In this document: positions 6,999-60,421 of the stretch, piece by piece
How the letters are laid out: the number at the start of each line of letters is the position of its first letter
Numbering within the stretch: position 1 is the stretch's first letter
Assembly: GCA_963738405.1 (NCBI GenBank)
Contig: CAVTWJ010000004.1
Coordinates: forward strand, 13,499 to 77,498
DNA length: 64,000 nucleotides
Source: a candidate division FCPU426 bacterium
GTDB lineage: Bacteria; Oederibacteriota; Muellerivitia; Muellerivitales; Muellerivitaceae
Direction: 5' to 3'
Notes under the pieces: generated by a model
The model's database searches: none
What the model was told of the DNA's origin: nothing
What the model saw: the letters and a program-made list of their open reading frames with translations, nothing else
Position numbers and translations under genes: made by a program

Positions 6999-7865
6999 TT
7001 GAAAAACATAAATTTACCCACTGCAAATCAAAGGCCGCACATGGGCACCATGCCTGAGATTCTCGACGACTCCAAATACGCCAAGGGTACGGGCCTTTTT
7101 TCCGTTTACGAGAATGTCTCCTTTCCGGAAGACGTGAAAAAGCGCTGCATGGCCCTGTTGGAATTCGGCACCGAAACCCTCCTCAAAAACGACTTTATCA
7201 TCCTCGATTTCGTCCCTTATCCCGGTTTGGGCCGGGTGGGGCAAGACGATGTGCTGAAGTATTCGTGGATTCTTTCCGAATCCCACCGGGTGCTGATGTA
7301 TGACCCTAAAACCAAGACCTTGATCGATGAGCTTTATACCTGCAGTCCCGAAAAGGACGGCCGCTTGATGTTTGAGGCAGCCAATCAGCGCATTGGAAAA
7401 CCGGTCAAAAGCATCCTTTTGAGCGAAATTGTGAGCAAGGAAATGGCCCAGCAGGATGAGCCGGACAAGCTGTTTCATTCGGTTCAAGACGCTTCCAAGA
7501 AATTCCGCATGGCCCCCAAAAAGAACTACTGCGTCTCCACCGTGTTTTTCGATATGTCCGATACGAAGCTGGATGAGGACAGCCTGGAAACCATGCTGAC
7601 CAAGGCCTTGAACAAAGATGATCAGAAGCCGGTCATTGAATCCGCCTGCCGTTATGATCCGCAAGGCTACACCTACATCCACCAGTCCCCCAAGCATTTC
7701 GCTGGACTACACAGCTATCCCGGCACGCTGAAATCCGCTCACTTAAGCCTGATCGGAACCGGGGAAGCGGTGGTTCCGGTTTTGGAAGATATGGAAGAAG
7801 TAGTTTACAAACGCCGAAAAACCGAACCCACCATGAGCATCAAGATCGTCGCCGAAGGTTTTTAA
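6999..7865 (+). CDS. Hypothetical cytoplasmic protein
   Basis: 288-aa ORF with ordinary codon usage and no recognisable domain; the overlapping antisense ORF 7014..7697 is judged spurious. Confidence 0.45.
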   Translation: MKNINLPTANQRPHMGTMPEILDDSKYAKGTGLFSVYENVSFPEDVKKRCMALLEFGTETLLKNDFIILDFVPYPGLGRVGQDDVLKYSWILSESHRVLMYDPKTKTLIDELYTCSPEKDGRLMFEAANQRIGKPVKSILLSEIVSKEMAQQDEPDKLFHSVQDASKKFRMAPKKNYCVSTVFFDMSDTKLDEDSLETMLTKALNKDDQKPVIESACRYDPQGYTYIHQSPKHFAGLHSYPGTLKSAHLSLIGTGEAVVPVLEDMEEVVYKRRKTEPTMSIKIVAEGF

Positions 7866-8036
7866 GAATATCTTTCAAGATTTTTTACCACCACGATGCG
7901 TCCCCTTCGGGGACAGGCTTGCATCGCACCAAGTCACTAAGAACAGCAATAAGCCTTAAAATGTTTGAAATCCTTTTTTAAAATTAGCTTTTCTTGGTGT
8001 CTTTGTGCCTTGGTGGTGAAGCAATTAGAGGTGATT

Positions 8037-8699
8037 ATGTCGCAATGGCTTGAACATTACGGGATGTCGGTGAGTTTTTTGGCTTTGATCCTGGCCTTTG
8101 GGTCGGCCCTTTACGGCGTTCTTCTTAAAAAGAAAAAATCCGCGAAAGAAAAAAAATCCCCTTCCAAAGCCGCGCCCTATTTTATTTTGGCCGGCGTGTT
8201 ATCAGTGATCGCGATACTTTTAGCCGTTGGGACTGGTTTGGCTTTTCAAAAAATTCAAACCCTGAAAGCCAACGGCCCTTTTCCTTTCGGAAGCGGATGG
8301 GTCTTTTACGGTTATTACGACCAGGTGAAAAAAACTTTTCTAGCGGGGCCCTTTGAAAAAATCGCCGCCCGTTCCGCGAGCCCCAGGACGGATGACAACC
8401 TCCCGGGGAAGGGGGACTTGTTGGAGGTGATCGAGAGCGCGAAAGTTTATATTCCATATTTCAAGCAAGCGGGATCGGTCCACGAAATGGACTGTCCTAT
8501 TGTCTATAAGTTCATGATTGAGAAAAGCGATGAAACGGGCGTGGTGCTCAAACCGGGCGCTCGATTAGTGGTGAGGGATGTGGTTTCGAAAAGTTTTACT
8601 CAAAACGGAATCAGCGTTTGGGCGCGGGTGGAAAGGTTTGAACCACCCGCGGGTGGAAGCGGCGCGCCCGCGCCTCCGGCTCCCTCGGGTAAAAAATAA
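8037..8699 (+). CDS. Hypothetical membrane protein
   Basis: Start set at MSQWLEHYG (AGAGGTGA SD); two N-terminal TM helices then a soluble domain and Pro/Ala/Gly-rich tail. Confidence 0.5.
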   Translation: MSQWLEHYGMSVSFLALILAFGSALYGVLLKKKKSAKEKKSPSKAAPYFILAGVLSVIAILLAVGTGLAFQKIQTLKANGPFPFGSGWVFYGYYDQVKKTFLAGPFEKIAARSASPRTDDNLPGKGDLLEVIESAKVYIPYFKQAGSVHEMDCPIVYKFMIEKSDETGVVLKPGARLVVRDVVSKSFTQNGISVWARVERFEPPAGGSGAPAPPAPSGKK

Positions 8700-8718
8700 A
8701 TTCTTCTCAAACAAAAAG

Positions 8719-9087
8719 TCAGGCGACGTGAATCCGGTTTAACTGCTGGGAAAGTAGATCCATATCCGTTTTTTTCACCGCTAGAAATTTTAATCCCGCA
8801 AGCAAATCGGTGGCCCAGACCACATCCACAAAGGCCGTGATGGTTTCATTGCGGTCAGGTAATAGAAGCTTCAAATTTAAAAGATTCCCGGCGCTCAAGC
8901 GGCCATCCTGCGCCACGCAGAGTCCGCCCAAACTGGTATCCAGGGTTTGCGATTGGTTTTCGCTTTTTGTTAATTCGCTGACGTTATGGGCCGAAATTTT
9001 TTCCTCGAGCACCCGATACCTTACCGGCATCTTCAGGGGAACTCTTTCAAAAGCTCTTTTCTCGGCAAACAGGTTCTGGTCGGACAT
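8719..9087 (-). CDS. PilZ-domain (c-di-GMP-binding) protein
   Basis: RxxxR motif (EKRAFERV) and D-x-S-x-GG motif (DTSLGGL); start refined to MSDQNLF. Confidence 0.65.
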   Translation of the reverse strand: MSDQNLFAEKRAFERVPLKMPVRYRVLEEKISAHNVSELTKSENQSQTLDTSLGGLCVAQDGRLSAGNLLNLKLLLPDRNETITAFVDVVWATDLLAGLKFLAVKKTDMDLLSQQLNRIHVA

Positions 9088-9336
9088 TGGGAGCCATCCT
9101 TTTGTCGCTTTCAGGCGACGCTGGGTTGTAACTAGAGCTCTATATGCGCTGTAAATAGGCCCCAAATCAATTAAAACCAGGCCATAAATTGGGCAAACGT
9201 CAGGCCTGAACCGAGGTACCCATTCCTTGTTTGGGAATGGGTACACCAATTCTCGCCCTTCGGTTTGAGACCTCAGGGCATGGGCCCTCCCACCCCTTAA
9301 CCTACGTAAAATCCCTTTGTTTTATTCAAAATATTC

Positions 9337-9365
9337 TTGACGACACCCTTAAAAGCCCCAATAAT
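9337..9365 (+). promoter_or_regulatory. Sigma70-like promoter (TTGACG-17 nt-AATAAT) for the mraZ/dcw operon
   Basis: Near-consensus -35 and -10 hexamers with a 17-nt spacer, ~80 nt upstream of mraZ. Confidence 0.4.
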
Positions 9366-9373
9366 GGCGCCAA

Positions 9374-9398
9374 GTGGGTATTAGTGGTAGGAAGTGGT
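9374..9398 (+). promoter_or_regulatory. Putative MraZ operator: three direct GTGG[GT] repeats at exact 10-bp spacing
   Basis: GTGGG(9374) GTGGT(9384) GTGGT(9394) just downstream of the -10; matches the known MraZ-box arrangement. Confidence 0.5.
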
Positions 9399-9444
9399 AG
9401 TTAATCAAAAAACCCATTAAATTAAGGCTTTTTGAGGGGTTTTA

Positions 9445-9903
9445 ATGTTTCGTGGAATCTTCCACAACTCAGTTGACGACAAGGGGCGCACGGTTCTTCC
9501 GGCCCGTTTTCGTGAACAGATTCGTGAACAGCACGAAACACCCCTCGTCCTTACCTTGGGTTTTGACCAATGCCTTTTCCTCTATCCCCTGGATGCCTGG
9601 AAAAAAATTGAAGAAAAGCTGGCCTCGCTCGACAGCCTGAATTCCGAAGTCAGGCAGTTTCAAAGAACCATCCTCCGGGCCACCGATGAAATCGATATCG
9701 ATCCCCAGGGACGCATCATGATTTCGCCCGTCCTGCGAAAAGAGGCGGGAATCGCCAAGGCGGTGGTGATCGTGGGCATGCTTCACCGCATCGAGATTTG
9801 GGACAAGGAAAAATACGAGGCTTATCACGCCCAATCCGCGCAGTCGTTGGAACTTTTGGGCCAGAAGCTATCCGACAAAGGCATTCAGTCCATCACCTTA
9901 TAG
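9445..9903 (+). CDS. mraZ: Transcriptional regulator MraZ
   Basis: 152 aa, duplicated SpoVT/AbrB-like halves, N-terminal MFRGIFHNSVDDKGR; first gene of the dcw cluster. Confidence 0.9.
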   Translation: MFRGIFHNSVDDKGRTVLPARFREQIREQHETPLVLTLGFDQCLFLYPLDAWKKIEEKLASLDSLNSEVRQFQRTILRATDEIDIDPQGRIMISPVLRKEAGIAKAVVIVGMLHRIEIWDKEKYEAYHAQSAQSLELLGQKLSDKGIQSITL

Positions 9904-9913
9904 GAGGGTGGAA

Positions 9914-10264
9914 ATGGTCGGTATTGAGATCAAGGAAAAATTTTCGCTGATCCATGTCACCGGGGATTTAAGCGAAGACGACTTGGGCGCCCTCCGGACG
10001 GCCATCGATACCTTGATGACCCGGGGCTACCGGCATGTGGTGCTCGATTTGAAGGAAGTGGCGTTCATGAACGCCCGGGGCTTGGGGGCCCTGGTGAACC
10101 ATTGGGGGCAGGTGCGCTTCAAGAGGGGGGATTTGAAGATTGTGGGGCTCAACAGCCGCCTGATGCATCTATTCAGGTCCATGGGGGTGGAACAGATATT
10201 CGAGGTCTACCCCAGCGTTGAGGAAATGATGGAAAAGACCGGCCGGATGCCGGCCATCGCTTAA
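9914..10264 (+). CDS. STAS-domain anti-sigma-factor antagonist (SpoIIAA-like)
   Basis: STAS pattern HVTGDLSEDDLGALR...HVVLDLKEVAFMNARGLGALV...LKIVGLNSRLMHLFRSMGV; GGAGGG SD. Confidence 0.75.
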   Translation: MVGIEIKEKFSLIHVTGDLSEDDLGALRTAIDTLMTRGYRHVVLDLKEVAFMNARGLGALVNHWGQVRFKRGDLKIVGLNSRLMHLFRSMGVEQIFEVYPSVEEMMEKTGRMPAIA

Positions 10265-10288
10265 GAAGAAAGACATAAGGGGGAAACA

Positions 10289-10627
10289 GTGGCCGTTGCC
10301 TTAGCGCCTGAAGAAACCGTGACCGTGCTTCGCCTTGCCGGAGACCTTTCGCTCCATGACATGGAGGGGCTCTCCAGCGTATTGACCGACATGTCGGTCA
10401 AGGGCAAGACGCGGGTCATTCTTAATTTCCGCCAGGTCAACCATGTGGCCCTGGGCGGCATCTCCAAACTGGCGGAAAGAAATTTCCGCCTCCGAAGCCT
10501 GGGCGGAGAAATCAAGCTGGTGGCGGTGGCTCCCTATGTCGCCAACCTTTTCAAGCTGGTTGGAGCCCTTGGCTATTTTGACGTTGTTTCCAACGAGGAC
10601 CTGGCCCTGGCCCGGTTCGACGCCTAA
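10289..10627 (+). CDS. Second STAS-domain anti-sigma-factor antagonist
   Basis: LRLAGDLSLHDMEGL...RVILNFRQVNHVALGGISKLA...IKLVAVAPYVANLFKLVG; GTG start with AAGGGGGA SD. Confidence 0.7.
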   Translation: MAVALAPEETVTVLRLAGDLSLHDMEGLSSVLTDMSVKGKTRVILNFRQVNHVALGGISKLAERNFRLRSLGGEIKLVAVAPYVANLFKLVGALGYFDVVSNEDLALARFDA

Positions 10628-10794
10628 CTTTTTTAGTTAACCGACGACCTAGTTGATCGACACCTACTCCAACGCCATTTCAAGGATGAACTGAAGGAAA
10701 AAATGAAACTCTACGGAGGAAGTTTAGAGTCAAAGGGAACCGGGTGTTCCCTTGGGCCCTGTGCTTCCGGAGCGCGACGCGCGCTTCGCGGCCG

Positions 10795-11739
10795 ATGAGC
10801 GTCCATCAGCCGGTTCTGCTTCAGGAAGCCGTGGAATATTTGTCTCCCCCGCCGGACGGCGTGGTGTTGGATTTGACGGTCGGGATGGGCGGCCACTCGA
10901 CGGAGCTTTTAAAAAGGCTTCCGAAGGGCCGGTTGATTGGTGTGGATCAGGATGTTGATGCCTTACAACACGCTGGCCTGGCACTCCGGGGCGACCCAAG
11001 GGTTTCCCTGTTCAAGGCTAACTTCGCCAACCTCCTGTGGGTGCTGAAAGACCTTGATGTAAAAGAGGTTGACAGCGTGTTGATGGATATCGGCATCTCG
11101 TCTTATCAATTGGATACACCCTCAAGGGGCTTTTCCTTCATGCATGAGGGGCCCTTGGATATGCGCATGGACCAGGCCGCCGGGTTCACCGCCTCCGAAA
11201 TCATCAACAATTCCTCCGAGCAGCAGCTTTCCAAAATCTTTTTCGAGTTCGGCGAAGAACCCAAGGCCCGCGCTTTGAGCCGCGCCATCGTGAAGGCCCG
11301 GGCGGAAGAACCCATCCGCACCACCTCCCAATTGGCGGAGCTGGCCAAGCGGGTCCTGGGCCGCCCCAGGGATCGGGCCGCCAAGCACCCCGCGACCAAA
11401 CTGTTTCAGGCCCTCCGCATCGCGGTCAACCGCGAGTTGGAAGTGCTTCAAAAGGGGCTGAAATCGGCCTTGTCCGTCCTCAAGCCCGGGGGGCGCATCG
11501 CGGTCATCACCTTCCATTCATTGGAAGACCGCATCGTCAAGCAGCTCTTCAAGGCTGAGGCCACGGATTGTATCTGCCCGCCCGAAATTCCCATGTGCGT
11601 TTGCGGCCACAAGGCTTCCTTGAAACTCATCACGCATAAACCCCTTACGGCTTCCGAGGAAGAATTAGCCCTGAATCCCCGTTCCCGCAGCGCCAAGCTG
11701 AGGGTGGCTGAAAAGCTGACTCCGGGAGGTCCGGTTTGA
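10795..11739 (+). CDS. rsmH: 16S rRNA (cytosine1402-N4)-methyltransferase RsmH (MraW)
   Basis: N-terminal HQPVLLQEAVEYL, SAM motif DLTVGMGGHS, C-terminal RSRSAKLRVAEK; start refined to MSVHQP. Confidence 0.9.
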   Translation: MSVHQPVLLQEAVEYLSPPPDGVVLDLTVGMGGHSTELLKRLPKGRLIGVDQDVDALQHAGLALRGDPRVSLFKANFANLLWVLKDLDVKEVDSVLMDIGISSYQLDTPSRGFSFMHEGPLDMRMDQAAGFTASEIINNSSEQQLSKIFFEFGEEPKARALSRAIVKARAEEPIRTTSQLAELAKRVLGRPRDRAAKHPATKLFQALRIAVNRELEVLQKGLKSALSVLKPGGRIAVITFHSLEDRIVKQLFKAEATDCICPPEIPMCVCGHKASLKLITHKPLTASEEELALNPRSRSAKLRVAEKLTPGGPV

Positions 11740-12173
11740 ACGAGACGGCCTCCAACTTTAAAGACCGGGTGATGGTTTCCGCGGGCGAAGCCCTGGACGC
11801 GGGCATGTTTTGGCGCGGTAACCTGGCGGGCGCCTTGAAACGCAGGGACTATAAGGGAACCTTCTGGGGAATCCTGGCCTTGAGCCTGTTTCTTTTCTTT
11901 TATGTTTGGCAGCACATGCAGGTGGTGAAGCTCTCCTACGAGGTTCAGGGTCTGCGCTCCCAGAAACAAACTTTGACCAACCAATACTATTACCTCAAGT
12001 ACAAGATGTACGACGTGGACAGCCTCTCCAAGGTGGAATCCATTGCCCGCGATCAGCTGGGCATGGTGACGCCCCGCACCGACCAGGTGGTCATCCTGTC
12101 CGATAACGACTCCCTGGTTCCGCGCTGGCTGACCTGGTGGACTCAAACGATGGATAAGGGAGGCCGCTTGTGA
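11736..12173 (+). CDS. ftsL: Cell division protein FtsL
   Basis: ~145 aa, single TM (GILALSLFLFFYVW) followed by a coiled-coil; positioned between rsmH and ftsI; the start may be a later in-frame ATG (11772). Confidence 0.7.
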   Translation: MNETASNFKDRVMVSAGEALDAGMFWRGNLAGALKRRDYKGTFWGILALSLFLFFYVWQHMQVVKLSYEVQGLRSQKQTLTNQYYYLKYKMYDVDSLSKVESIARDQLGMVTPRTDQVVILSDNDSLVPRWLTWWTQTMDKGGRL

Positions 12174-14380
12174 GCGTGCGTATGCCCTCCTCCCCCCTCC
12201 ACCAACGGCTCTGGATTTTGGAATCGGTCATCTTTTTCGCGCTTTTAGGCGTCGAGGCCCGGTTGGTTTACCTTCAGGTCTTCAAACATTCCGAATACAG
12301 CCAATTGGCTTTCCACCAGCAATACACCTCCAAGGAAACCCAGCCCTCACGGGGCCTCATTGAGGACCGCAACGGGGTTCTTCTGGCCATGAATATCGAT
12401 CTCTATAACGTTTGCGGCCATCCGGACCAGATTCAAGACAAGGCGCACGCCGCGGCGGTGCTTTCGGGGGTCTTGGGGCTCCCCTACGGCACGATCCTCT
12501 CCAAACTCTCGCAGGATAAATCCTTCGTTTGGCTTGCCCGCCAGGTTCCCTTCGAAAGAAGCCAGGCGGTGGAAAGCTTGAAACTCCAGGGGGTGGAGGC
12601 CTTCGGGGAACAGCGCCGGTTTTATCCCGACCGCGACATGGCGGCGCAGGTTTTGGGCTTTACCGGAATGGACAACCAGGGATTGAACGGACTAGAACGC
12701 TTCTACGAAAAAAATCTCTCCGGCCAAAAGGGCCTGGTCATGGCCGAGCGGGACGCGAGGGGAAGGCTGGTTCCCACCGACAACAAGCAGGTCAAGCAAA
12801 GCGTGGAGGGCACCAGCCTTGTCACCACCCTGGATACGACCCTCCAGCATGTGGCCCAGGTGGAGCTCCAAAAGGCCTTCGACAAGTACCGGTGCAAAGC
12901 GGCTTCCGTGGCCGTGATGAATCCCAAGACCGGCGAAATTCTCGCCATGGCCAACCTGCCGACCTTTGATCCCAACCATTTTTCCCAAGTTTCTTCCGAC
13001 GTTTGGCGCGACCGCATGGTGAACGACGAATTCGAGCCAGGGTCCACTTTCAAGCTGGTGACGGCCCTGGGGGCTTTGGAGGAAGGGGTCGTCAACGAGG
13101 ATGATAAATTTTTCTGCGAGAACGGCGAGTACCACACCGATTACGGCCGGGTGGTCACGGACCACGAAAAACACGGCTGGCTGACTTTTAGGGAAGTCTT
13201 CGGTTATTCCTCCAACATCGGCATGGTGAAGGTGGGGGCCAAGCTGGGCAAAGACAACCTTTACCGCTACTGCCAGCGCCTGGGGTTCGGGGTCCCCACC
13301 GGCATCGACCTGCCGGGCGAGGCCGCGGGCAAGCTCCGCCCGGAAGCGCAATGGAGCGGCATCTCCATGACGACCATCCCCTACGGCTATGAGGTTTCCG
13401 CCACGCCGATGCAGATCCTGCGGGCCTACGCGGCGATCGCCAACGGCGGGGTGATGATGAAACCCTACCTGGTCAAGGAGCTGGTCAGCAAAACGGGAAC
13501 GGTGGTGAAAAGCTTCACTCCCCAAAAGGAAAAGCGCATCTGTTCCGAAAAGACCGCCCAGCGCCTGACGGCCATGATGAGGTGGGTCGTCGAGAAGGGA
13601 ACGGGTACGGCGGTGGACCTGCCCGCCTACCCAATAGCCGGCAAAACGGGAACGGCCTACAAGTTCATGAACGGCCACTATTCCAAGTACAACTATGTTT
13701 CTTCCTTCGTGGGGTTTGTTCCCGCCGACAACCCCAAGTTCGTTATTTATTGTTCCTTGGATGATCCCCGGGGCATCTATTGGGGCGGCTACACGGCCGG
13801 GCCCGTATTTAAAGAAGTCGCCAAGCGGGCCCTGTCCTACGCTTTAGTCCCTCCCGTCAACTCGGATTTGGAACAAACGGCCTCTTTGAAAAAACAACTG
13901 CCTTCCTTCGTGGGGCTCACCCCTTCCCAAGGCCGTTTGCTGGGCCAGGACCGCCAGGTGAAAATGAAGTTCACCGGCAAGGGCGCGAAGATCACATCCC
14001 AGATTCCCCCGGCGGGAACCTACATGGTGGACTCTCAAGCCGCCGGGTTGTGCGTCACCCTGACGCTGGGAAACACAGTTTCCGCATTCGCGGCTGGAAC
14101 GGTTCTGAATGGGTCAGTCCCGAACGGGACCGTTCCGAATGGAACAGCCCCGAATGGGGCAGTCCCGAACGGGACCATGCCTGACTTGCGGGGAAAGACC
14201 AAGCGGCAGGCCCTGGCTCTTTTAGCTCCCTTCGGGCTCAAGGTGAATTTCTCAGGCGAGGGAATTGTTCGAACCCAATTTCCGCCGGTCGGACGGTCCT
14301 TGAAAACCTTTAATGCCTGCGATTTGAGTTGCGACATTCCTTCCGTCCGGGTTGACGCGGTCCAGGGGGGGAAATCATGA
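12170..14380 (+). CDS. ftsI: Peptidoglycan D,D-transpeptidase FtsI (PBP3) with a C-terminal PASTA domain
   Basis: PBP dimerisation plus transpeptidase motifs (STFK, SSN, KTGT); C-terminal MPDLRGKTKRQALALLAPFGLKVNFSGEG fits the PASTA consensus; GTG start. Confidence 0.9.
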   Translation: MSVRMPSSPLHQRLWILESVIFFALLGVEARLVYLQVFKHSEYSQLAFHQQYTSKETQPSRGLIEDRNGVLLAMNIDLYNVCGHPDQIQDKAHAAAVLSGVLGLPYGTILSKLSQDKSFVWLARQVPFERSQAVESLKLQGVEAFGEQRRFYPDRDMAAQVLGFTGMDNQGLNGLERFYEKNLSGQKGLVMAERDARGRLVPTDNKQVKQSVEGTSLVTTLDTTLQHVAQVELQKAFDKYRCKAASVAVMNPKTGEILAMANLPTFDPNHFSQVSSDVWRDRMVNDEFEPGSTFKLVTALGALEEGVVNEDDKFFCENGEYHTDYGRVVTDHEKHGWLTFREVFGYSSNIGMVKVGAKLGKDNLYRYCQRLGFGVPTGIDLPGEAAGKLRPEAQWSGISMTTIPYGYEVSATPMQILRAYAAIANGGVMMKPYLVKELVSKTGTVVKSFTPQKEKRICSEKTAQRLTAMMRWVVEKGTGTAVDLPAYPIAGKTGTAYKFMNGHYSKYNYVSSFVGFVPADNPKFVIYCSLDDPRGIYWGGYTAGPVFKEVAKRALSYALVPPVNSDLEQTASLKKQLPSFVGLTPSQGRLLGQDRQVKMKFTGKGAKITSQIPPAGTYMVDSQAAGLCVTLTLGNTVSAFAAGTVLNGSVPNGTVPNGTAPNGAVPNGTMPDLRGKTKRQALALLAPFGLKVNFSGEGIVRTQFPPVGRSLKTFNACDLSCDIPSVRVDAVQGGKS
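14106..14180 (+). repeat. Five tandem 15-nt repeats encoding (V/A)PNGT pentapeptides (linker before the PASTA domain)
   Basis: NGSVPNGTVPNGTAPNGAVPNGTMP encoded by near-identical ccgaa(c/t)gg(g/a)ac units. Confidence 0.6.
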
Positions 14381-46147: not shown

Positions 46148-48598
46148 ATGAAACCAAATTTCTTGCCCTCCAAGGGCAGCTTCCAAGACTCCCGCTCACT
46201 GGGGGTTCTTTTAATGGGTTTCTGGATTCTTTTTTTATTGATCCGTTTTTATTCCTCCCTGGAAAATCCATTTCATGCCCTATTTGCTTGGTTTTCCCTT
46301 CAAGGGATTCCTGACCGGCCATTGAACGAGAAAATAACCATTTGGATAGGCTTCGCCAAGTCGTTGTTTGTCGGTCTTTGGACCCTTTTATTGGCCTGGA
46401 GAGGAGGCCGGAAGATAAGGTTTTTTTTCCACAGATTTGAAAAATCTTATCCAATGGAAGCTTTTTTGGATTTAGCCTTGGGCTTCCTCATGCTCAATTG
46501 CTTCTGGATGGGCTTGGGTTTGACAGGCCTATGGTTTCCCGGATTATGGGCCCTCCTAACCCTGCCCGCTGGTTTATGGGTCATTTGGGATCTTCACCCC
46601 CTTTGGAAAAACCTTCCGCCCATACGGCTGTCCCAGTTGAAAGGTAAAGCGGGTATCGGAATCCTATTTTTATTGTCCCTGGTCTATACGGGAATCTTGT
46701 TCGCCCATGATCTGCTTCCTGAAACCTTCTATGACGCCCTCAATTATTTTTTGGGAATGCCGCAGGCCTGGCTGAACCGCCATGGGATATGCGACCTGCC
46801 GACCCAAATGCTATCGGGCTATTTTCACGGGGGTTCGCTTTTTTTCATGAACGCCCTGATCGCCGGCGACACGGGGGCCGCCAAGACGCTCAACGCTTTG
46901 GTGTTGGTGCTTTGCGTGGGGTTGGTTTGGAAATGGATGGAGGAATGGGGCGAGAAGGAAGGCGCGCTCTTTGCCGCCTTTTGGACCCTGACTTTCCCAC
47001 TGTTCTTCATCAACTCCTGGGCCGTGCGGGTGGACGGCCTGGTAACCTTCTTAACCCTTCTTGTTTTTTATTCCCTCTCGCGTCTTTGGCCATCCGGTGA
47101 AATGGCGGCTAAGGGAGCCCGGGAGGCCTATTGGGTCTTCATGGCTTGCGCCTTGGGCGGGGCGGCGATCGCGGTGAAGCCCACGGCCCTGGTAGGGCTG
47201 GCTGCGGTTTCGCTATTGCTTCTTTGGGATAAGGGGCCTATTTGGTTTTTCCGGCCCAAGCATTGGGTCTTCGCCGGGGTTTGCTTTCTTGTTTTCGCCG
47301 GGCCTTGGCTTCTTAAAAATTGGGTCTATGCGGGCAACCCCCTCTTTCCTTACGCTTCATCCCTTTTCGGCGGGCGTTCCCTAACTCCCGATCATTACGC
47401 CCGACTGCTTGGTGAAAACCACCAGTTTCTTCCCATGGATCACGGCCTTTTCTCTTATCTCACCCTGCCATGGCGGTTGACTATGCCCCAGGAGGGGGAG
47501 ACTCAATTTTTGGGGCCCCTGATCCTGGCTTTTCTGCCATTGTTATTTCTATTGAAACATTTGGACGGCCGCTGGAAACGATTGGCCTGGTTGACGGCCT
47601 TGTATTTGATATTAGGGCTCTGTTCCACCCACATGCTCCGTTTTTTAATGCCGGGGTTTCTCATGCTCTTCGTGCTGGTGGGGAAGGCCGTGGCCCATTC
47701 GGGAGAGATGGTTAAAAAAACAGCTTGGGCGGCACTGGGGCTATCCGCAGTTTTGAACCTGGGCTCCTACGCGGTTTTAAGTTCTCGTTATTTTGACGGC
47801 GCTGGGGTTTGGTCGGGCCGGGAAACGCCGGAAGCCTACCTCGACCGGAAAATGATCAATTCTTATGAGCCGCTGGCCCGCTGGTGTGACTTTCTTCCTT
47901 CCGAATCCAAGGTGCTGGTGGTGGGGGATGCGAGGGGCCAATATTATCCCCGTCCTTTTCTCGCCAATTCGGCCTTTGATATGCCCTTTTTCGAGGAAGC
48001 CGCCAAGGAAGAGAAGAGCCCCCAGGGAATCCTAAAGCGCCTGAAAGAAGCCGGGATCGACGCCGTGGTCCTCAACCTACCGGAAGGCATGAGATTGAGC
48101 CAGCAATACGGCCTCTATCATCTCACTCCGGACCAATGGAAAAAGTTGGACCTCTTTTTTAAAGAAGGTCTAAAACCAGTCTTTATCAGGCCTACCCTGC
48201 AAGCCTATTTGGTGGGTGATTCACTTGGCGCCCCTGATTTAAAGGCTCCTTTTGATCCCTTCACCTTTTTTGACGCCGCGACTTTTGAATTTACCGAAGC
48301 CCTCCAAGCGGGTGACCTGAAAAAGGCAGAGGGATTGAGGCTTGAGGTATTTAACCTTTTCCCCCGGGATGCCTATTGGCGGGAGCAATTGGCCCGATTG
48401 GACGAAGCGGAAGGAGTTCCCCAGCAAGCGTTGAAAGATTACAAGCAAGCGGACCAACTGGGGTTTTTGTCCCCGAATGGCTATGAAAGCTGGAAAACCC
48501 TTAGCCGAAAGTGGGGAAGGGGCAGGGACTTAGCCTTGATCACGAAAAGGGAGAAGGCTTGGGCTTCCCAGAAACAAACCGCGGGGGCTCAACCTTGA
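46148..48598 (+). CDS. Large polytopic membrane protein, GT-C-fold glycosyltransferase-like (ArnT/PMT/YfhO-like), paralog A
   Basis: 816 aa, >12 TM helices in the N-terminal ~500 aa, then a soluble C-terminal domain; conserved block ETFYDALNYFLG..GG.LFFMNALIAG shared with the downstream paralog. Confidence 0.55.
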   Translation: MKPNFLPSKGSFQDSRSLGVLLMGFWILFLLIRFYSSLENPFHALFAWFSLQGIPDRPLNEKITIWIGFAKSLFVGLWTLLLAWRGGRKIRFFFHRFEKSYPMEAFLDLALGFLMLNCFWMGLGLTGLWFPGLWALLTLPAGLWVIWDLHPLWKNLPPIRLSQLKGKAGIGILFLLSLVYTGILFAHDLLPETFYDALNYFLGMPQAWLNRHGICDLPTQMLSGYFHGGSLFFMNALIAGDTGAAKTLNALVLVLCVGLVWKWMEEWGEKEGALFAAFWTLTFPLFFINSWAVRVDGLVTFLTLLVFYSLSRLWPSGEMAAKGAREAYWVFMACALGGAAIAVKPTALVGLAAVSLLLLWDKGPIWFFRPKHWVFAGVCFLVFAGPWLLKNWVYAGNPLFPYASSLFGGRSLTPDHYARLLGENHQFLPMDHGLFSYLTLPWRLTMPQEGETQFLGPLILAFLPLLFLLKHLDGRWKRLAWLTALYLILGLCSTHMLRFLMPGFLMLFVLVGKAVAHSGEMVKKTAWAALGLSAVLNLGSYAVLSSRYFDGAGVWSGRETPEAYLDRKMINSYEPLARWCDFLPSESKVLVVGDARGQYYPRPFLANSAFDMPFFEEAAKEEKSPQGILKRLKEAGIDAVVLNLPEGMRLSQQYGLYHLTPDQWKKLDLFFKEGLKPVFIRPTLQAYLVGDSLGAPDLKAPFDPFTFFDAATFEFTEALQAGDLKKAEGLRLEVFNLFPRDAYWREQLARLDEAEGVPQQALKDYKQADQLGFLSPNGYESWKTLSRKWGRGRDLALITKREKAWASQKQTAGAQP

Positions 48599-48618
48599 AT
48601 CCGCGTCCTTCTTCCGCC

Positions 48619-50943
48619 ATGGCACCTTCTTCCATCCGCCTATTGCTCGCGGGTGCCTGGGCGCTGGGCCTGATTATTTTTTATTTTAAAACGGCCTCCA
48701 TCACCTTTTCGGCCGTTCCAGGTTTCTTTGATCTTTCCCGATTTCTGGACGTGGATTTCTCCGCCCGATGGGCGGTTTGGAAAGGGTCTTTAGGGATATT
48801 GGTTGCCTCGGCTGGAATCCTATGGCTGGTCATGGGATGGGGAAGACGGGTGGCTGGGTTATTAGGTCTCAAACCCGCTTCAAATTTCCTGCGCTGGGCC
48901 CTTTCTTTTGGCTTGGGGGGGTGCGTCCTGAACTTGTTTTGGATGGGAAGTGGTTTGGTACGGCTGTGGTTTCCGTGGGAGAAATGGCTGAATCTATTTA
49001 TGATGGCCATAAATCTGATATGGATCAATACAGGGTTAGGCGCGTTTTGGTATCCGCACTTAGAATGGATTGTGGTTCTGCTATTGGTGGTTGTTTTAAT
49101 GAAGCCGGCCTTTGGTTTTTTACGATCTGCAAGAAATTTGCGTTTCCCAGTTATAAAGCCTCCTAGTTTGGGTCTTGGATTGTTGGTCTTAATGGGGTTG
49201 TGGTTCAACTTATTATCCTTCACTCAGGCTCTAACACCTGAAAGCTTTTACGATTCGATGGTTTACCACTTGGCTGTCCCTGCCTTTTGGCTTCAACATC
49301 ACGGTATGATAGATTTCCCGACGAATTTTTTTTCCAATTATCCCTTTGGCGGGGAGTGTTTTTTCTTGAACGGGTTTGCACTTCAGGGTACCGAGACGGC
49401 CAAGATGCTCCAGGCCCTAACAGTTCTGGCCTGTGCCTTCGCGGCGGGCGGTTGGGCCGAGGAAGTGGCGGGCCCTTCGGCCGGTATCAAGGCCCGCTGG
49501 CTCGCCTTTGGCTTGACGGCCACCCTTCCCCTTCTGACCTTGAACGCCTGGGCCACCCAGGTGGAAGGGTTATTGACGCTCTTCATCATTCTTTTTCTTT
49601 ATTGTCTGACTCGCTTAAATGAGGGCGGTAAAAGATGGGTTTTGGCGGCAGGGCTTTTGGCGGGCGGGGCCTTAAGCGTCAAATACACGGCTCTCTTTGC
49701 CCTGGTGCCTGCCTTGGGGCTCTTGGGTTTTCAAAAAAGCTTTCGGCGTTTCTTTTCTTTTTCCAACATCCTGATCTTCGGGACCAGCGCATGCTTACTC
49801 TTTTTGCCCTGGGTTCTTAAAAACGTTGCCTATACGGGAAACCCGGTTTTTCCTTACTTGCCTAATTGGTTTTCGGGCCGTCATTTAAGCACCGAAGGAT
49901 TCGCTCGTTTAATGGAAGAACAACATGCGGTAGCCGCCCATACCTTTTGGCAATGGTTGGCCCTACCCTGGACCCTCACCTTTTCTAACCCCGACAGTTA
50001 CAACTTTTGCGGGCCCTTGGCTTTGGGGTTGGTTCCTATTCCCTTTTTGATCGGGTCTAAGCATCCGGCATTAAGGTTCCTTTCCCGCTTGTGCCTGCTT
50101 CTATTGGTGGTCGGGTTGGCTTCTACTCATATCCTTAAATTTTCCTTGCCGGTTTTTCCCCTCTTTTATGTGCTGGTAGCTTGCCTGGCGGGAATCCAAA
50201 CCGATTCCAGATGGCTAACTGGCACAGCCTGGGCTGGGGTTTTGGCGAGCCTTCTTTGTTTGGGGCCTTTGCTGGCAATCGCCCAGTACTACTACCCCTC
50301 CATGGGCGTCTTAACAGGGGCTCAAACGAGGGACGAGGCCTTAGTTTCGCAGGGCAAGATCACACCCTATTTGCCAATGGCCCGGTGGCTTTTGCCACCC
50401 CACGTGACAGCCTCATCGACTCTCTTGATCATTGGGGATGCGCGGGGCCTTTATTACGGCCAGCCTTTTCAAACCAACACGGTTTTCGATGAACAGTTTC
50501 TCTCCAGGGCCTGCCGGGAAGGGAAGGATGCGGAAGGTTTGAAACTCGCCTTAAAAGAAGCGGGGGTGGATTACCTGGCGGTGAATGGGCCGGAGGGGAT
50601 TCGGGTTTCGGATCAGTACCATCATTACGATTTAACCTCCGCCCAATGGCAGCTATTGGATGACTTTATACAAACGGGAACGGATATGGTTTATTCCCAT
50701 AACCTTCAGGCGGTTTATAAGATCAGGAGTGATTGGAAGGCAAAGCCCTCGTCCGAAACACCCGATCTGTTGCTGTTGTTTTCGAAGCCCGCTGTCGACT
50801 TCATGCGCCAATCGCAACAGCAGAAGTGGGATGAAGCCCTGGTCGATCTTCAGGAAACCGCGAAACTTTATTCATTCTCATCTTTTTGGCAGGATCAGTT
50901 GAAGGAATTAGAGAATAAGATTGGGAGTTTGAAAAATGGTTGA
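48619..50943 (+). CDS. Paralogous GT-C-like polytopic membrane protein, paralog B
   Basis: Same TM topology and conserved blocks (ESFYDSMVYHLA..GGECFFLNGFALQG, LTLNAWATQVEGLLTLFIILFLY) as paralog A; start refined to MAPSSIRLLLAG. Confidence 0.55.
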   Translation: MAPSSIRLLLAGAWALGLIIFYFKTASITFSAVPGFFDLSRFLDVDFSARWAVWKGSLGILVASAGILWLVMGWGRRVAGLLGLKPASNFLRWALSFGLGGCVLNLFWMGSGLVRLWFPWEKWLNLFMMAINLIWINTGLGAFWYPHLEWIVVLLLVVVLMKPAFGFLRSARNLRFPVIKPPSLGLGLLVLMGLWFNLLSFTQALTPESFYDSMVYHLAVPAFWLQHHGMIDFPTNFFSNYPFGGECFFLNGFALQGTETAKMLQALTVLACAFAAGGWAEEVAGPSAGIKARWLAFGLTATLPLLTLNAWATQVEGLLTLFIILFLYCLTRLNEGGKRWVLAAGLLAGGALSVKYTALFALVPALGLLGFQKSFRRFFSFSNILIFGTSACLLFLPWVLKNVAYTGNPVFPYLPNWFSGRHLSTEGFARLMEEQHAVAAHTFWQWLALPWTLTFSNPDSYNFCGPLALGLVPIPFLIGSKHPALRFLSRLCLLLLVVGLASTHILKFSLPVFPLFYVLVACLAGIQTDSRWLTGTAWAGVLASLLCLGPLLAIAQYYYPSMGVLTGAQTRDEALVSQGKITPYLPMARWLLPPHVTASSTLLIIGDARGLYYGQPFQTNTVFDEQFLSRACREGKDAEGLKLALKEAGVDYLAVNGPEGIRVSDQYHHYDLTSAQWQLLDDFIQTGTDMVYSHNLQAVYKIRSDWKAKPSSETPDLLLLFSKPAVDFMRQSQQQKWDEALVDLQETAKLYSFSSFWQDQLKELENKIGSLKNG

Positions 50944-52825
50944 TCGAATGGGAAGGGCATCAATTGGGCTTCTTCTTTTTTGGGTGCCCCTGACCTTCTA
51001 TTCCCGCAGTGCGGACGGCTTCGTACTGTCCAAAGAATGGGTTGCTCTGGGTGCCGGGATTTTGCTGGTGGGGTTGGCCCTTTCCCGTATCCCAAGCCTT
51101 TTGCGAAATCCATTGGTTGTTATTTCGGGTCTCTTTCTGCTGTGGATGCTGGGAGATGGATTACTCACTGTGTCTGATTCCACATCTGTGTGGGTCGGTT
51201 CCGCCTATCTTTGGGTCATTTTCCTTACCTTTATTGCGGTGGTTTTGATCGCTGGGCGGGGATTTACCTACGAAAAAATGCTTCATCTAGCCCTAGCGGC
51301 AGGGGTTTTCACGGCGGCCTATGGCTTGGCACAGGCATTGGGGGCCGATACCCATAATTGGGACACTCATTTCGAACGCCGGGCCTTTGCCACGCTGGGT
51401 AACCCCGATTATCTGGCCGGTTACTTGGTTGCTCTCCTTCCCATGTCGTTGATTCTTACCCTTCGATCCTCCGGTCAAAGATGGTGGTTCGGTTTTAGGG
51501 CCATCACCCTTCTATTATTCGCCGGGCTTCTCGTAACACGGGTTCGAGGTTCCTTATTGGCTCTAGGGCTTTCCCTGTTAGTTCTGGTCTTGGGGCTTTG
51601 GATGCCCTGGGGCAAAACACTTGCCGCTAAAAATAAGAAAACCCTCGGGATTGCCTTCGCACTGTTGTTAGCGGGTGGGGCGGCTTATTGGTTCCGTTAC
51701 GGGGGCTTGAATGCTTTCGACATGGGGCAGGTTTCGGTTCAACAGCGCCTTCAGACCTACCAGGTGGGGATGGAAATGCTGAAGGACCACCCCCTCACCG
51801 GGATCGGCCTGGGCCAACTGGGACGGGATTATCCTCTCTACCAATGGAGGCCCTATACCCAAGCCGAATGGCCTGCCCATCCCCTGACCCTGACGGAACA
51901 TCTCCATAATGAGTTTTTGCAGTTCGCTGTGGAAGGCGGATGGATCGGATTGGGGTTGTATCTGCTGGTTCTGTTGGCCTTTGCCCGACAGACCTTCCAG
52001 CTTTTTGGAAATCCAACCACCTCCTCCGCCTCTAAAGAATTAATGTTGGGAATCGTGGCTTCGCTGGTTGCTCTGTTGGGGCAGGCTTTGACCAATTTTC
52101 CCTTTCAAGTGATCCCAACGGGAGTACTTTTGGGATTGTTCTTTGCGGCGCCAGTGGCATTAGCGCCAAGGGCAATAGAACCCCAAAGGTTTCGCGTGGG
52201 TCGAGTCTCAATGGCGGTATTAGGCTTGGTTCTATTGGCATTGGGGGCCTGGGGGGCCAAGAACATGGCGGCCTCCATCGCTTTAAGGGACACCGTGGGT
52301 GAAACCAACCTGGGGAACGCGGCCAAGGCCGGTGCCTATGCCGATCGGTTAGCGGGTTTGGCCCCAGGCGACCCTAAGGCTTGGGACGCGGTGGCCAAGG
52401 CTAGGGAATTGAACAAGCAATGGGACGGGGCAATGGAATCCTACGCCCGGGAAACAGCGCTCAACCCTAACGTGGTGGAAGCCTATTACGCCATGGCTCA
52501 AGACCGGATCATGCAGGGGCGTTTGGATGAAGCCCTGGCCCTTTGCCAAAAATGTTTAGCGGTGGCGCCTAATTATTCGTCGGTCGTGTGGCTGGAAGGC
52601 GTTTGCTATTTCAAGTTGAACCGATATGCCGAGGCCACACAGGAATTTGAGCAGTTCATTCCCTATGCACCCATGGAAGAATCACTCTATGTAAATTTGG
52701 GGGTTTGTTACGTAAAGTCGGCCCGTAAGGCCGACGCAGTGGCGGCTTGGAAAAAGGCTTATTCCCTCAACCCGCAGGACGCCCAAGTGGTCCTTTATCT
52801 AAAATCGGTGGGTGTGAAGATTTAA
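50936..52825 (+). CDS. O-antigen ligase (Wzy_C) family membrane protein with C-terminal TPR repeats (WaaL/PglL-like)
   Basis: Multi-TM with the Wzy_C signature (HLHNEFLQFAVEGGWIGLGLYL, periplasmic loop GIGLGQ); C-terminal TPR units (AYYAMAQDRIMQGRLDEALALCQKCLAVAPN...). Confidence 0.7.
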   Translation: MVDRMGRASIGLLLFWVPLTFYSRSADGFVLSKEWVALGAGILLVGLALSRIPSLLRNPLVVISGLFLLWMLGDGLLTVSDSTSVWVGSAYLWVIFLTFIAVVLIAGRGFTYEKMLHLALAAGVFTAAYGLAQALGADTHNWDTHFERRAFATLGNPDYLAGYLVALLPMSLILTLRSSGQRWWFGFRAITLLLFAGLLVTRVRGSLLALGLSLLVLVLGLWMPWGKTLAAKNKKTLGIAFALLLAGGAAYWFRYGGLNAFDMGQVSVQQRLQTYQVGMEMLKDHPLTGIGLGQLGRDYPLYQWRPYTQAEWPAHPLTLTEHLHNEFLQFAVEGGWIGLGLYLLVLLAFARQTFQLFGNPTTSSASKELMLGIVASLVALLGQALTNFPFQVIPTGVLLGLFFAAPVALAPRAIEPQRFRVGRVSMAVLGLVLLALGAWGAKNMAASIALRDTVGETNLGNAAKAGAYADRLAGLAPGDPKAWDAVAKARELNKQWDGAMESYARETALNPNVVEAYYAMAQDRIMQGRLDEALALCQKCLAVAPNYSSVVWLEGVCYFKLNRYAEATQEFEQFIPYAPMEESLYVNLGVCYVKSARKADAVAAWKKAYSLNPQDAQVVLYLKSVGVKI

Positions 52826-58184: not shown

Positions 58185-59021
58185 CTAAGATGGGGTCTTT
58201 GAATATCGAAACTCCAGAGTTTCCCGCAGTTTCTTTTCGTCCCAGTGGAATTTTTGATAAATCGGGCTGGGACCTTTCCGTGAAGAAGCCAGCCAATTTT
58301 CATTCCCGGGCCCGGTGATTTCACCGAGGATCGTCGCGTGACTCAAACAATAGCGGTCCTCCAACACGAATTGGGAAAATAGTTCGACAGAACCCCGGCG
58401 GATTCGTCCTTCCGGAGGAAAGGAAACCGTGAAAGAACCGTCATCCCCGCCCCATCCCAGGCCCATCGCCTTCAGAAATGCTTCTTTTAGGGTAAAGATT
58501 CTCAGAAATACCAAAGGGCGTAAGGCTCGCGGCTGCTTCTCCAGATATTCTTTTTCCTCCGTGGAAAAATAACGGTCCGCGATCAGCCGCCAATCTCTAT
58601 TTTTCGACTCCATAAGCGCTAGTTCCACATCGATTCCAACAGGAAAAGCTGAAACCGTCAGGGCCACTAGGCCTTCCGTATGGGAAAGATTGAAATGTAA
58701 GTCCCGGCTTCTCAAAGCGGGTTTACCGGAGGGACTTAGGATGAATTCTAAATCTATCATTTCCCGGCCAGTGTAAAAAGAAAGCAAGTGACGGGTCAGG
58801 ATGCGGGAAAAAAGAAATTCCTTCTTGGCGTAATGCAAACTCAGGAAATGAAAATCGCGATTTTCGTCAGGGCTCAGAAAATGAATCAGGAATTCGTCCG
58901 GATGTTGAGTGGGTTTGGAATCAAATTCAAGAAGGTGAATGTGGATCGCATTGAGAGATAGAGCTTCGGGGCTCTCTGTCTTGCGGTCCATCGCAAGGTT
59001 TGGGTTGGGGAGGGTCATCAT
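58185..59021 (-). CDS. 4'-phosphopantetheinyl transferase (Sfp/EntD family)
   Basis: PPTase motifs FNLSHTEG, GIDVE, FTLKEAFLKAMG. Confidence 0.8.
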   Translation of the reverse strand: MMTLPNPNLAMDRKTESPEALSLNAIHIHLLEFDSKPTQHPDEFLIHFLSPDENRDFHFLSLHYAKKEFLFSRILTRHLLSFYTGREMIDLEFILSPSGKPALRSRDLHFNLSHTEGLVALTVSAFPVGIDVELALMESKNRDWRLIADRYFSTEEKEYLEKQPRALRPLVFLRIFTLKEAFLKAMGLGWGGDDGSFTVSFPPEGRIRRGSVELFSQFVLEDRYCLSHATILGEITGPGNENWLASSRKGPSPIYQKFHWDEKKLRETLEFRYSKTPS

Positions 59022-59737
59022 CCGGCGCCGCCGTCCATCACCATGACACTTCCATTGAGGTATTCCGGGGCTTCCTCCGCTAGAAAATAGACAACGCGGG
59101 CGACCTCCTTCGGTTCACAGAAACGTTTCAAGGGAACGACTTGAAGAAGGGCTTCCTTCGCCTGCGGGGAAAGCTTATCGATCATGGGGGTGGTCACCCC
59201 TGCCGGCGCCACCACATTGGCGATGACCCCGTAGGGTCCGCATTCCTTGGCCAAGGCCTTAGTAAAACCGATGATGCCGGCCTTGGAGGCTGAATAGTTG
59301 GTCTGACCCGGCAATCCATGGATTCCGGAAACGGAAGAAAGATTAATGATCCGGCCGTTCTTTTTTTTCATCATGTCGGTGGCGAAGCGGCGGGTCAGGT
59401 GAAAAACGCCTGTCAGGTTGGTGTTCAAAACATCCGTCCAATCCTCATCTTTCATAGCGAAAAGGGGTTTGTCCCGGGTGATTCCGGCGTTGTTCACGAG
59501 TACGTCCACATTCTTTTCTTCGTCTAAAACCGCTTTGCAGAAACGATCGCAAGCTTCCCGGTCCGCCACATCTAGATGATGGGCCCGGGTCTTTCCGTCA
59601 AAGCGTCCCTCGATCTCACGGGCTGAAGCCTCATTGGAATGGAACGTGAAATGAACCTTCCATCCTGCGGCCGCGAAGGTTTCCACCAGACTTTTCCCGA
59701 TACCGGAGGAACCGCCCGAAATAACCACCTTTTTCAT
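59018..59737 (-). CDS. fabG: SDR-family 3-oxoacyl-ACP reductase (FabG-like ketoreductase)
   Basis: GGSSGIGKS Rossmann motif, NNAG, catalytic S...YSASK. Confidence 0.85.
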   Translation of the reverse strand: MKKVVISGGSSGIGKSLVETFAAAGWKVHFTFHSNEASAREIEGRFDGKTRAHHLDVADREACDRFCKAVLDEEKNVDVLVNNAGITRDKPLFAMKDEDWTDVLNTNLTGVFHLTRRFATDMMKKKNGRIINLSSVSGIHGLPGQTNYSASKAGIIGFTKALAKECGPYGVIANVVAPAGVTTPMIDKLSPQAKEALLQVVPLKRFCEPKEVARVVYFLAEEAPEYLNGSVMVMDGGAG

Positions 59738-60183
59738 GAAAGCCTCAATTTTCCAATAAGAAATTTTCCGGAAGCCACTTCATTTCCATCGACATAACCC
59801 TTTCCCTCGAAGATCCGGTTCGGCGGGACCGTTTTGGTCAGCTTCATATGAATTTCCAGCTGATCCCCCGGAAAAAGGGGCTTGAGGAACCGAAATTCCA
59901 ATACCGCCCCAATCGCGTCAAAGACCCCATCCACCGCCGACCCTTCCGTCAAACGGATCAGGAGGGTGGCGGCCTGGGCGAAGCATTCGATGGTTAATAC
60001 CCCCGGAAATACCGGATAGTCCGGAAAATGGCCCTGGAAATGGATGTCGTTGACGGTGATGTTTTTAAGCGTGTGAAGTTCCTTTCCCTTTTCCCAGGAT
60101 AAAACCCTATCCACCATGAACAATGGAAAGCGCTGTTTTAAAAAGGACAGGTCTGGAATTTCCTCCATGGGCTCAAGCGGCAT
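59734..60183 (-). CDS. FabZ/FabA-like 3-hydroxyacyl-ACP dehydratase (hotdog fold)
   Basis: HFQGHFPDYPVFPGVLTIECFAQA (catalytic His and Glu); start could be M at 60183 or M at 60168 (MEEIPD, aligning with FabZ N-termini). Confidence 0.8.
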   Translation of the reverse strand: MPLEPMEEIPDLSFLKQRFPLFMVDRVLSWEKGKELHTLKNITVNDIHFQGHFPDYPVFPGVLTIECFAQAATLLIRLTEGSAVDGVFDAIGAVLEFRFLKPLFPGDQLEIHMKLTKTVPPNRIFEGKGYVDGNEVASGKFLIGKLRLS

Positions 60184-60421
60184 GAACCATCCCTTCAATT
60201 ACTTCCGACGCCGTATTTACTGTCCCCATTTTGATCAGCTGGTCGGGATCGATCATAACGTTGAACTCGGTTTCCAGCTTGGCCAGGAATTCCAGAGCCC
60301 TCATGGAATCATACTTGGCCATTTCCTTGAAGGGCTTCTCATCCGCAACGTCAGCCGGAGGCACGTCGAACATCCCGGCGATAATTTCCCGAATCTTCGA
60401 TTTGATTTCAGCGGCTTCCAT
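60173..60421 (-). CDS. Acyl carrier protein
   Basis: 82 aa, phosphopantetheine-attachment motif YDSMRALEF (DSM-type serine). Confidence 0.85.
   Translation of the reverse strand: MEAAEIKSKIREIIAGMFDVPPADVADEKPFKEMAKYDSMRALEFLAKLETEFNVMIDPDQLIKMGTVNTASEVIEGMVHAA

Follow-up and report, generated by a model that had tools for sequence, protein, structure and literature searches.

What are two small STAS-domain proteins doing between mraZ and rsmH, at the start of the dcw (division and cell wall) cluster? The question is raised by a 64,000-nucleotide (nt) stretch of contig CAVTWJ010000004.1 from a candidate division FCPU426 bacterium, which we refer to as the window. Here mraZ (9445..9903; 152 amino acids (aa)), the gene for the transcriptional regulator of the dcw cluster, is followed by two genes that we call STAS1 and STAS2, and then by rsmH (mraW), which encodes the 16S rRNA m4C1402 methyltransferase. 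We found that these genes are a regular part of the operon in their lineage, and we discuss below how they might act there.

The original prediction, made from the sequence of the window, had placed two co-oriented STAS open reading frames (ORFs) between mraZ and rsmH, and both the ORF coordinates and the Pfam matches bear this out, all four genes lying on the + strand. MraZ is identified by PF02381 (E=8.5e-35) and by TIGR00242 (140 bits against a cutoff of 98), and the K13/R15 DNA-contact motif can be read from its sequence. RsmH (10795..11739) matches PF01795 (E=8e-116) and TIGR00006 (368 bits), and alignment with more than 20 orthologues indicates that its start is most likely ATG 10795, not GTG 10744. 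As to the lengths initially given for the STAS proteins, 118 and 112 aa, the second is correct for STAS2 (10289..10627), whose GTG start codon at 10289 is preceded by an AAGGGGG ribosome-binding site. STAS1 (9914..10264), on the other hand, is probably 116 aa long: ATG 9914 is its most likely start, in preference to the alternative GTG 9908 that yields 118 aa, because a GGAGG sequence at 9903-9907 lies 6 nt upstream and the homologues measure 116-117 aa. This ribosome-binding site overlaps the TAG stop codon of mraZ. The gaps are 10 nt between mraZ and STAS1 and 24 nt between STAS1 and STAS2.

Both proteins belong to the STAS family and share the fold of SpoIIAA. PF01740 (gathering cutoff 22.6) is matched by STAS1 with 50.7 bits (E=1.7e-13) and by STAS2 with 40.3 bits (E=2.9e-10). 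In the anti-sigma-factor antagonist family TIGR00377 (cutoff 53.45), STAS1 lies above the threshold with 60.7 bits and STAS2 below it with 38.4 bits, while neither reaches the SpoIIAA equivalog family TIGR02886 (46.2 and 37.3 bits, respectively, against a cutoff of 114.75). In the AlphaFold (AF2) models of the two proteins, whose predicted local distance difference test (pLDDT) values are 88.8 for STAS1 and 82.2 for STAS2, strands and helices follow each other in the order seen in SpoIIAA. Foldseek returned SpoIIAA as the top match in both cases, 1th8_B for STAS1 (template modelling (TM) score 0.83) and 1thn_B for STAS2 (TM 0.84), and the nearest structures were the SpoIIAA-SpoIIAB complexes 1th8, 1thn and 1tid (TM 0.83-0.84) together with the RsbV-RsbW complex 6m36. 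Sequence profile searches against the PDB ranked the relatives in the same way, with SpoIIAA and RsbV best (E=1e-11 to 1e-12). In public databases, members of both families are annotated as "anti-anti-sigma factor" or "STAS domain-containing protein".

The two proteins are only 23% identical to each other in an hhalign comparison. A recent tandem duplication was considered and rejected, as the cross-profile scores of 28-50 bits are lower than those of many unrelated STAS proteins (60-85 bits); if the two genes arose by duplication at all, the event would be ancient. We also considered whether double-STAS proteins of about 225 aa represent "Rosetta-stone" fusions of STAS1 and STAS2. Their high scores are a sum over generic STAS domains; a serine occupies the phospho-site in most of the proteins inspected, and they are not specific relatives. 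An origin from SulP transporters or from MlaB was ruled out by the sequence scores and the structural ranking. Past the STAS core, STAS1 also carries a conserved C-terminal tail (window positions 10225-10264) that reads EMMEKTGR(L/M)PA(I/V)A-COOH, in which M105, M106, K108 and G110 are invariant. The C-terminus is non-polar and similar to a degron of the ssrA type or to a docking peptide, which we offer as an idea only.

The feature that separates the pair from the classical antagonists is the phospho-site. HMMER alignments place the SpoIIAA motif FMDSSGLG over FMNA(R/K/N)GLG in the STAS1 family and over HV(S/A)L(N/G)xIS in the STAS2 family; in the window the motifs are FMNARGLG and HVALGGIS, so that the position of SpoIIAA Ser57/58 is occupied by Ala in STAS1 and by Leu in STAS2. 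In STAS1 the GLG downstream of the phospho-site is retained, and STAS2 has lost the entire DSSGLG motif (HVxLxxIS). The replacement holds throughout both families: the Ser58 column contains Ala in 71, Val in 3 and Pro in 1 of the 75 STAS1 sequences, and Leu in 71/71 STAS2 sequences, with no Ser or Thr in either. Thus, the N-terminus of helix alpha2 offers no Ser/Thr for phosphorylation in any of these proteins.

The partners of such a switch were also searched for. Scans of the large window ORFs revealed no standalone RsbW/SpoIIAB-type (HATPase_c_2) kinase, nor did they give a Pfam match to a PP2C/SpoIIE phosphatase; the HATPase_c matches present are all to two-component proteins at a distance of more than 30 kb. 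The annotated flanks of five related loci (L020-L022, L104-L105) likewise yielded no kinase or phosphatase. The local absence of both enzymes, which the original prediction had stated, was thus confirmed by the Pfam scan of the window ORFs. The classical, phosphorylation-driven form of the partner-switching module that it proposed for the pair finds no support, as the serine is absent from all 75 STAS1 and 71 STAS2 sequences examined. The prediction had further considered that the proteins might lack the phospho-serine and resemble SulP-transporter STAS fragments; the loss of the serine was indeed found, and the resemblance is to SpoIIAA/RsbV instead of SulP.

How widespread is this arrangement? 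The homologues of each STAS protein form a separate, tight family of about 60-70 clusters at 90% identity. In an exhaustive HMMER profile search over 1.84 billion representatives, STAS1 fell into a single cluster at 50% identity and a handful of divergent singletons, and with a broader profile the scores drop from 136 to 59 bits, which marks the family as discrete. Every family member whose context was retrieved sits at the mraZ-rsmH junction. A STAS1-seeded scan of GTDB species genomes gave 19 loci, all of them (19/19) with the order mraZ-STAS1-STAS2-rsmH-ftsL-ftsI; 11 are labelled "candidate division FCPU426", and the remaining 8 carry generic or proteobacterial metagenome-assembled genome (MAG) labels. 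This context extends to the most divergent members (38-47% identity), in which stop and start codons overlap.

To remove the bias of seeding with STAS, we also scanned metagenome contigs with MraZ as the seed, using two MraZ peptide patterns and keeping 80/237 loci. Where MraZ was at least 51% identical to that of the window, one or both STAS genes occupied the junction in 33/33 informative loci. In lineages whose MraZ is 36-45% identical to it, mraZ is followed directly by rsmH at a distance of 3-126 nt, as the original prediction had said of most bacteria, with the exception of the NC10-type loci described below. The junction STAS genes are therefore lineage-typical for FCPU426 and no oddity of this genome, being present in every one of the 19 species genomes and the 33 informative metagenome loci. 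The original prediction had itself named such a general occurrence in the phylum as an outcome that would speak against novelty.

Within this lineage the two genes are maintained like their neighbors. Relative to the window, STAS1 averages 66% identity and STAS2 59%, compared with 71% for RsmH, 66.5% for FtsL and 65% for FtsI. The ratio of non-synonymous to synonymous substitution rates (dN/dS) is 0.05-0.17 for STAS1, 0.07-0.14 for STAS2, 0.006-0.09 for MraZ and 0.08-0.17 for RsmH. The STAS frames are intact in a set of more than 60 loci with identities of 38-90%, and their ribosome-binding sites are conserved. Judged by these sequence comparisons, STAS1 and STAS2 are under strong constraint and evolve like housekeeping genes.

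Some members of the lineage carry only one of the two genes. In a neighbor-joining tree of MraZ and RsmH, the deepest branches have both, which shows that the two-STAS state is ancestral. A sizeable nested clade carries STAS2 only (L034-L048, L054, L104 at 7626-8000, and L105); here 123-405 nt of non-coding DNA follow mraZ, and STAS2 abuts or overlaps rsmH. No remnant of STAS1 was detected in this gap by hmmsearch --max or nhmmer, and the dN/dS of STAS2 in this clade is somewhat higher (0.14-0.26). The converse state, with STAS1 only and rsmH directly after it, occurs on two independent contigs (L053, 2904-3254; L106, 19-372), which, like the STAS2-only clade, are nested inside the two-STAS clade. 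No locus lacking both STAS genes was seen among the FCPU426-type loci sampled. As single genes are lost and never both, an obligate heterodimer is disfavored, and partly redundant functions are favored.

A junction STAS gene recurs in a second lineage. Eight loci whose MraZ is about 40% identical (L065-L067, L072, L073, L076, L079 and L081) have a single STAS protein of 119 aa encoded between mraZ and rsmH, for example at 3952-4311 of L065. Cluster names assign it to candidate division NC10 / Candidatus Methylomirabilales, as in KRT69008.1 from NC10 bacterium CSP1-5. The phospho-site column of these proteins contains Glu in 14 and Ala in 11 sequences and again no Ser or Thr, and dN/dS indicates purifying selection. 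The NC10 locus therefore shares with FCPU426 the position, the tight gene spacing, the site without serine and the constraint; it differs in having one gene, which is distant in sequence (28-29% identical to both STAS1 and STAS2, with profile scores of 38-51 bits that are at the level of generic STAS proteins). The sister contigs L068 and L071 have no junction STAS. Either a shared origin with the FCPU426 pair or convergent recruitment would account for this distribution, and whichever holds, the NC10 case ties serine-less STAS proteins to the mraZ-rsmH junction.

The genetic surroundings strongly imply that STAS1 and STAS2 are co-transcribed with mraZ and rsmH under MraZ control. Upstream of mraZ lies a predicted sigma-70-like promoter of the mra operon, TTGACG-17 nt-AATAAT (9337..9365, + strand), which was assigned by its consensus match at 10/12 positions and is the sole promoter-like site on either strand within 8600-12300. 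Between this promoter, Pmra, and mraZ, a putative MraZ operator (9374..9397, + strand) comprises three GTGG boxes with N6 spacing (GTGGgtattaGTGGtaggaaGTGG). It matches the published MraZ-box consensus of three GTG(G/T) boxes at six-nucleotide spacing (PMC12957436). The triple pattern occurs once in the window, with 0 occurrences expected from shuffled sequences, and is found 51-153 nt 5' of mraZ in 48/63 lineage-type loci. The STAS genes lie downstream of these elements on the same strand, no terminator-like site was found on the + strand between mraZ and rsmH, and the junctions are short or overlapping. In divergent family members the coding sequences of STAS1 and STAS2 overlap by 4 nt, and those of STAS2 and rsmH by 14 nt. 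Beyond rsmH, the operon continues with ftsL (11736..12173, + strand; PF04999, E=1.6e-5), which overlaps both the rsmH stop and the ftsI start, and with ftsI (PBP3; 12170..14380, + strand), an ORF whose orthologues contain PBP_dimer and Transpeptidase domains.

Taken together, these observations lead us to a model that we favor tentatively: STAS1 and STAS2 would be integral adaptors of the mra operon that act by phosphorylation-independent, stoichiometric binding, with MraZ or RsmH as the most likely target. According to this model, the two proteins would be vertically inherited members of an MraZ-controlled operon, mraZ-STAS1-STAS2-rsmH-ftsL-ftsI, that kept the SpoIIAA/RsbV fold but no longer have the phospho-acceptor serine, which is replaced by Ala in STAS1 and by Leu in STAS2. 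Given this loss, a kinase of the RsbW/SpoIIAB type and a PP2C phosphatase could not switch them. They would instead work as protein-binding adaptors, their dose being set by Pmra and hence by MraZ autorepression, and the two paralogues would be partly redundant. The most conserved stretch of the proteins spans helix alpha2, strand beta4 and helix alpha3, which we take to include the kinase-contacting face of the SpoIIAA-SpoIIAB structures. Their target could, more speculatively, be a product of their own operon. Three grounds favor MraZ or RsmH. No other genes are universally linked, and the gene against which STAS2 and the NC10 STAS usually lie is rsmH. In addition, a genetic interaction between MraZ and MraW in E. 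coli awaits explanation: the lethality of mraZ overexpression is rescued by co-expression of mraW, whose role has been described as unclear (bioRxiv 10.1101/2022.02.09.479790). Binding of this kind would add a protein-level layer to the MraZ-RsmH unit that controls ftsL and ftsI expression.

Several points weigh against this model. Co-transcription is read from the sequence, and in the clade of the window a 167-nt spacer separates STAS2 from rsmH, so that tight coupling to rsmH is not universal. The universal linkage on which the choice of target draws is universal within the sampled loci, that is, the 80/237 that were kept, and naming MraZ or RsmH as the binding target on the grounds of gene linkage is speculative. 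The kinase search covered the window and the annotated flanks, which leaves room for an unlinked RsbW-like partner. Finally, the alanine at the STAS1 site corresponds to an S-to-A state that still binds SpoIIAB, as in 1tid, which ranks among the top matches in both sequence and structure.

The last two points lead to the main rival explanation, in which STAS1, STAS2 or both would be unphosphorylatable, constitutive antagonists that titrate an unlinked RsbW/SpoIIAB-like anti-sigma factor in a dose-dependent manner. The release of sigma factor would then track dcw transcription, and growth or division state would control a sigma regulon, which is the opposite direction to the original prediction, where stress or partner-switch signaling could act on dcw expression or the divisome. 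We regard this explanation as unlikely, though it has several observations in its favor: the closest relatives in sequence and structure are SpoIIAA and RsbV in their kinase complexes, STAS1 exceeds the TIGR00377 cutoff and retains GLG, the alpha2-beta4-alpha3 region that includes the kinase-contact face is the best conserved, and the S-to-A variant of SpoIIAA in 1tid still forms the kinase complex. Classical partner-switching modules, however, are usually clustered with their partners, and here kinase, sigma factor and PP2C phosphatase are all absent from the window and the annotated flanks. Moreover, STAS2 lacks the DSSGLG motif and falls below the TIGR00377 cutoff, and titration of an unlinked factor predicts neither the strict linkage to mraZ and rsmH over deep divergence nor the recurrence in NC10.

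Two further explanations keep the proteins in the operon and give them another role; we consider both improbable, and to a similar degree. STAS1 and STAS2 could form an obligate heterodimer that serves as a divisome or cell-wall scaffold by binding FtsL, FtsI or other dcw products. Their location inside the dcw cluster, the presumed co-expression with ftsL and ftsI, the translational coupling seen in divergent members and evolutionary rates similar to those of FtsL and FtsI would all suit a scaffold. It is harder to reconcile with sublineages that have STAS2 only or STAS1 only and an otherwise intact operon, or with the position of the genes, which is always in the regulatory head of the operon (mraZ-rsmH) and never among the fts and mur genes. 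To our knowledge, no STAS protein is a divisome component, and our literature searches for such components found none. Alternatively, the pair could sense a ligand, be it a nucleotide, acyl-ACP (acyl carrier protein) or a lipid, as has been reported of certain STAS domains, and signal metabolic state to the mra operon. Nucleotide binding is known for some STAS domains, and the structural matches include the STAS domain of YchM in complex with ACP (3ny7), but transporter-type STAS domains and MlaB match far more weakly than SpoIIAA and RsbV, and no ligand-binding motif was identified. Ligand sensing would in any case be compatible with the adaptor model as its input, and hence is not a true alternative to it. 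That the genes are functionless hitch-hikers or decaying pseudogenes is the least credible explanation, and the loss of individual copies in some sublineages is what speaks for it. The selection and conservation data effectively refute it: dN/dS is 0.05-0.17, frames are intact and ribosome-binding sites conserved in the more than 60 loci mentioned above, and in no locus of the sample are both copies gone.

In comparison with known systems, the two proteins are STAS superfamily members that resemble anti-sigma antagonists yet lack what defines a partner-switching module, namely the phospho-Ser and a linked kinase and phosphatase. SpoIIAA/RsbV antagonists share the fold and the size and are the best sequence and structure matches; in the present families, in contrast, the phospho-Ser is replaced family-wide, no GHKL kinase, sigma factor or PP2C gene is adjacent, and the setting is mraZ-rsmH instead of a sigma-factor operon. 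MlaB of the MlaFEDB complex offers a functional parallel, as it is a small standalone STAS protein that acts by stable binding without a phosphorylation cycle, as proposed here. It is nevertheless remote in sequence and structure (20.3 bits in NF033618 (mlaB_1), where the cutoff is 90; for 7ch7_E, a Foldseek E near 1e-3 and TM 0.59), and scans of the window found no Mla or ABC-transporter genes near the STAS pair. The SulP/SLC26 proteins share the STAS fold as the C-terminal domain of a membrane transporter, whereas STAS1 and STAS2 are standalone, cytoplasmic proteins (112-116 aa), each translated from a ribosome-binding site of its own; the DauA score is 14.7 bits where the cutoff is 614, and SpoIIAA ranks well above the SLC26 structures. 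The canonical mra operon matches in its promoter, its three GTGG/N6 boxes, mraZ in first position and rsmH-ftsL-ftsI downstream, and differs by the two genes added at an otherwise near-invariant junction, where NC10 and some sublineages have a single one. Among the papers that could be searched, we found none linking STAS proteins to mraZ or the dcw cluster, and a study of dcw synteny (PMC8871954) makes no mention of insertions.

The spacer and flanks of the pair also have features of their own. The spacer of 167-230 nt between STAS2 and rsmH is limited to the window (10628-10798) and its two closest relatives, L001 and L002. In the window it contains a small ORF of 31 aa (10703..10798, + strand), the TGA stop of which overlaps the rsmH ATG (ATGA), with counterparts at 6786-6890 in L001 and 6836-6949 in L002 (31-37 aa across the three genomes). 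A conserved GAAGGAAAAAATGAAAC block opens this ORF, and both its start and the ATGA overlap are kept in all three genomes, while the peptide itself is poorly conserved. The ORF could serve rsmH as a translational-coupling leader or could have arisen by chance. An Rfam search of 9100-11000 matched no RNA family. A divergent gene for a PilZ-domain protein, a member of the family of cyclic di-GMP (c-di-GMP) receptors, lies just 5' of the mraZ promoter (8719-9249, - strand) and is conserved only in L001 and L002. The synonymous divergence (dS) of mraZ from L001, L002 and L037 is 1.3-2.0, and that of its neighbors is 2-3 times lower (0.6-0.9); the MraZ of the window is 85-87% identical to distant lineages and 78-79% identical to its sister genomes. 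These values hint at a recombination breakpoint near the mraZ/STAS1 junction.

Elsewhere in the window, the dcw cluster runs on 3' of ftsI with ORFs to about 29414, an assignment made by size and order only. FtsI contains a pentapeptide repeat, NG(S/T/A)VP, in five copies (about 14120-14220), forming a linker before the C-terminal region, and its orthologues show a weak PASTA match in this region. The region 46148-52825 (+ strand) encodes two PMT_2-type glycosyltransferases (816 and 810 aa) and then a fusion of an O-antigen ligase (Wzy_C) with TPR. On the - strand, 58185-62589 encodes two ketoacyl synthases, a FabA/ApeI-like dehydratase, an SDR reductase and a phosphopantetheinyl transferase, and resembles an aryl-polyene-type lipid biosynthesis locus.

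The adjacency of mraZ and rsmH is among the most conserved bacterial gene pairs, and why a 16S rRNA methyltransferase should always follow the repressor of the dcw cluster is still puzzling, as is the way in which the two proteins affect each other. The STAS insertion at this junction offers a concrete handle on that question. In its boldest form, which we think possible but rather doubtful, our model would make the junction STAS proteins dedicated partners of MraZ (as anti-repressors or co-repressors) or of RsmH, and the first protein-level modulators of the MraZ-RsmH unit. They would have been recruited or kept at one and the same junction in two phyla, FCPU426 and NC10/Methylomirabilota, as a branch of STAS signaling that does without phosphorylation and is wired directly into the control of ftsL and ftsI expression. 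The locus further provides a natural example of STAS antagonist-like proteins without the phosphorylation switch, and for the uncultured FCPU426 bacteria this arrangement is simply the norm of the lineage.

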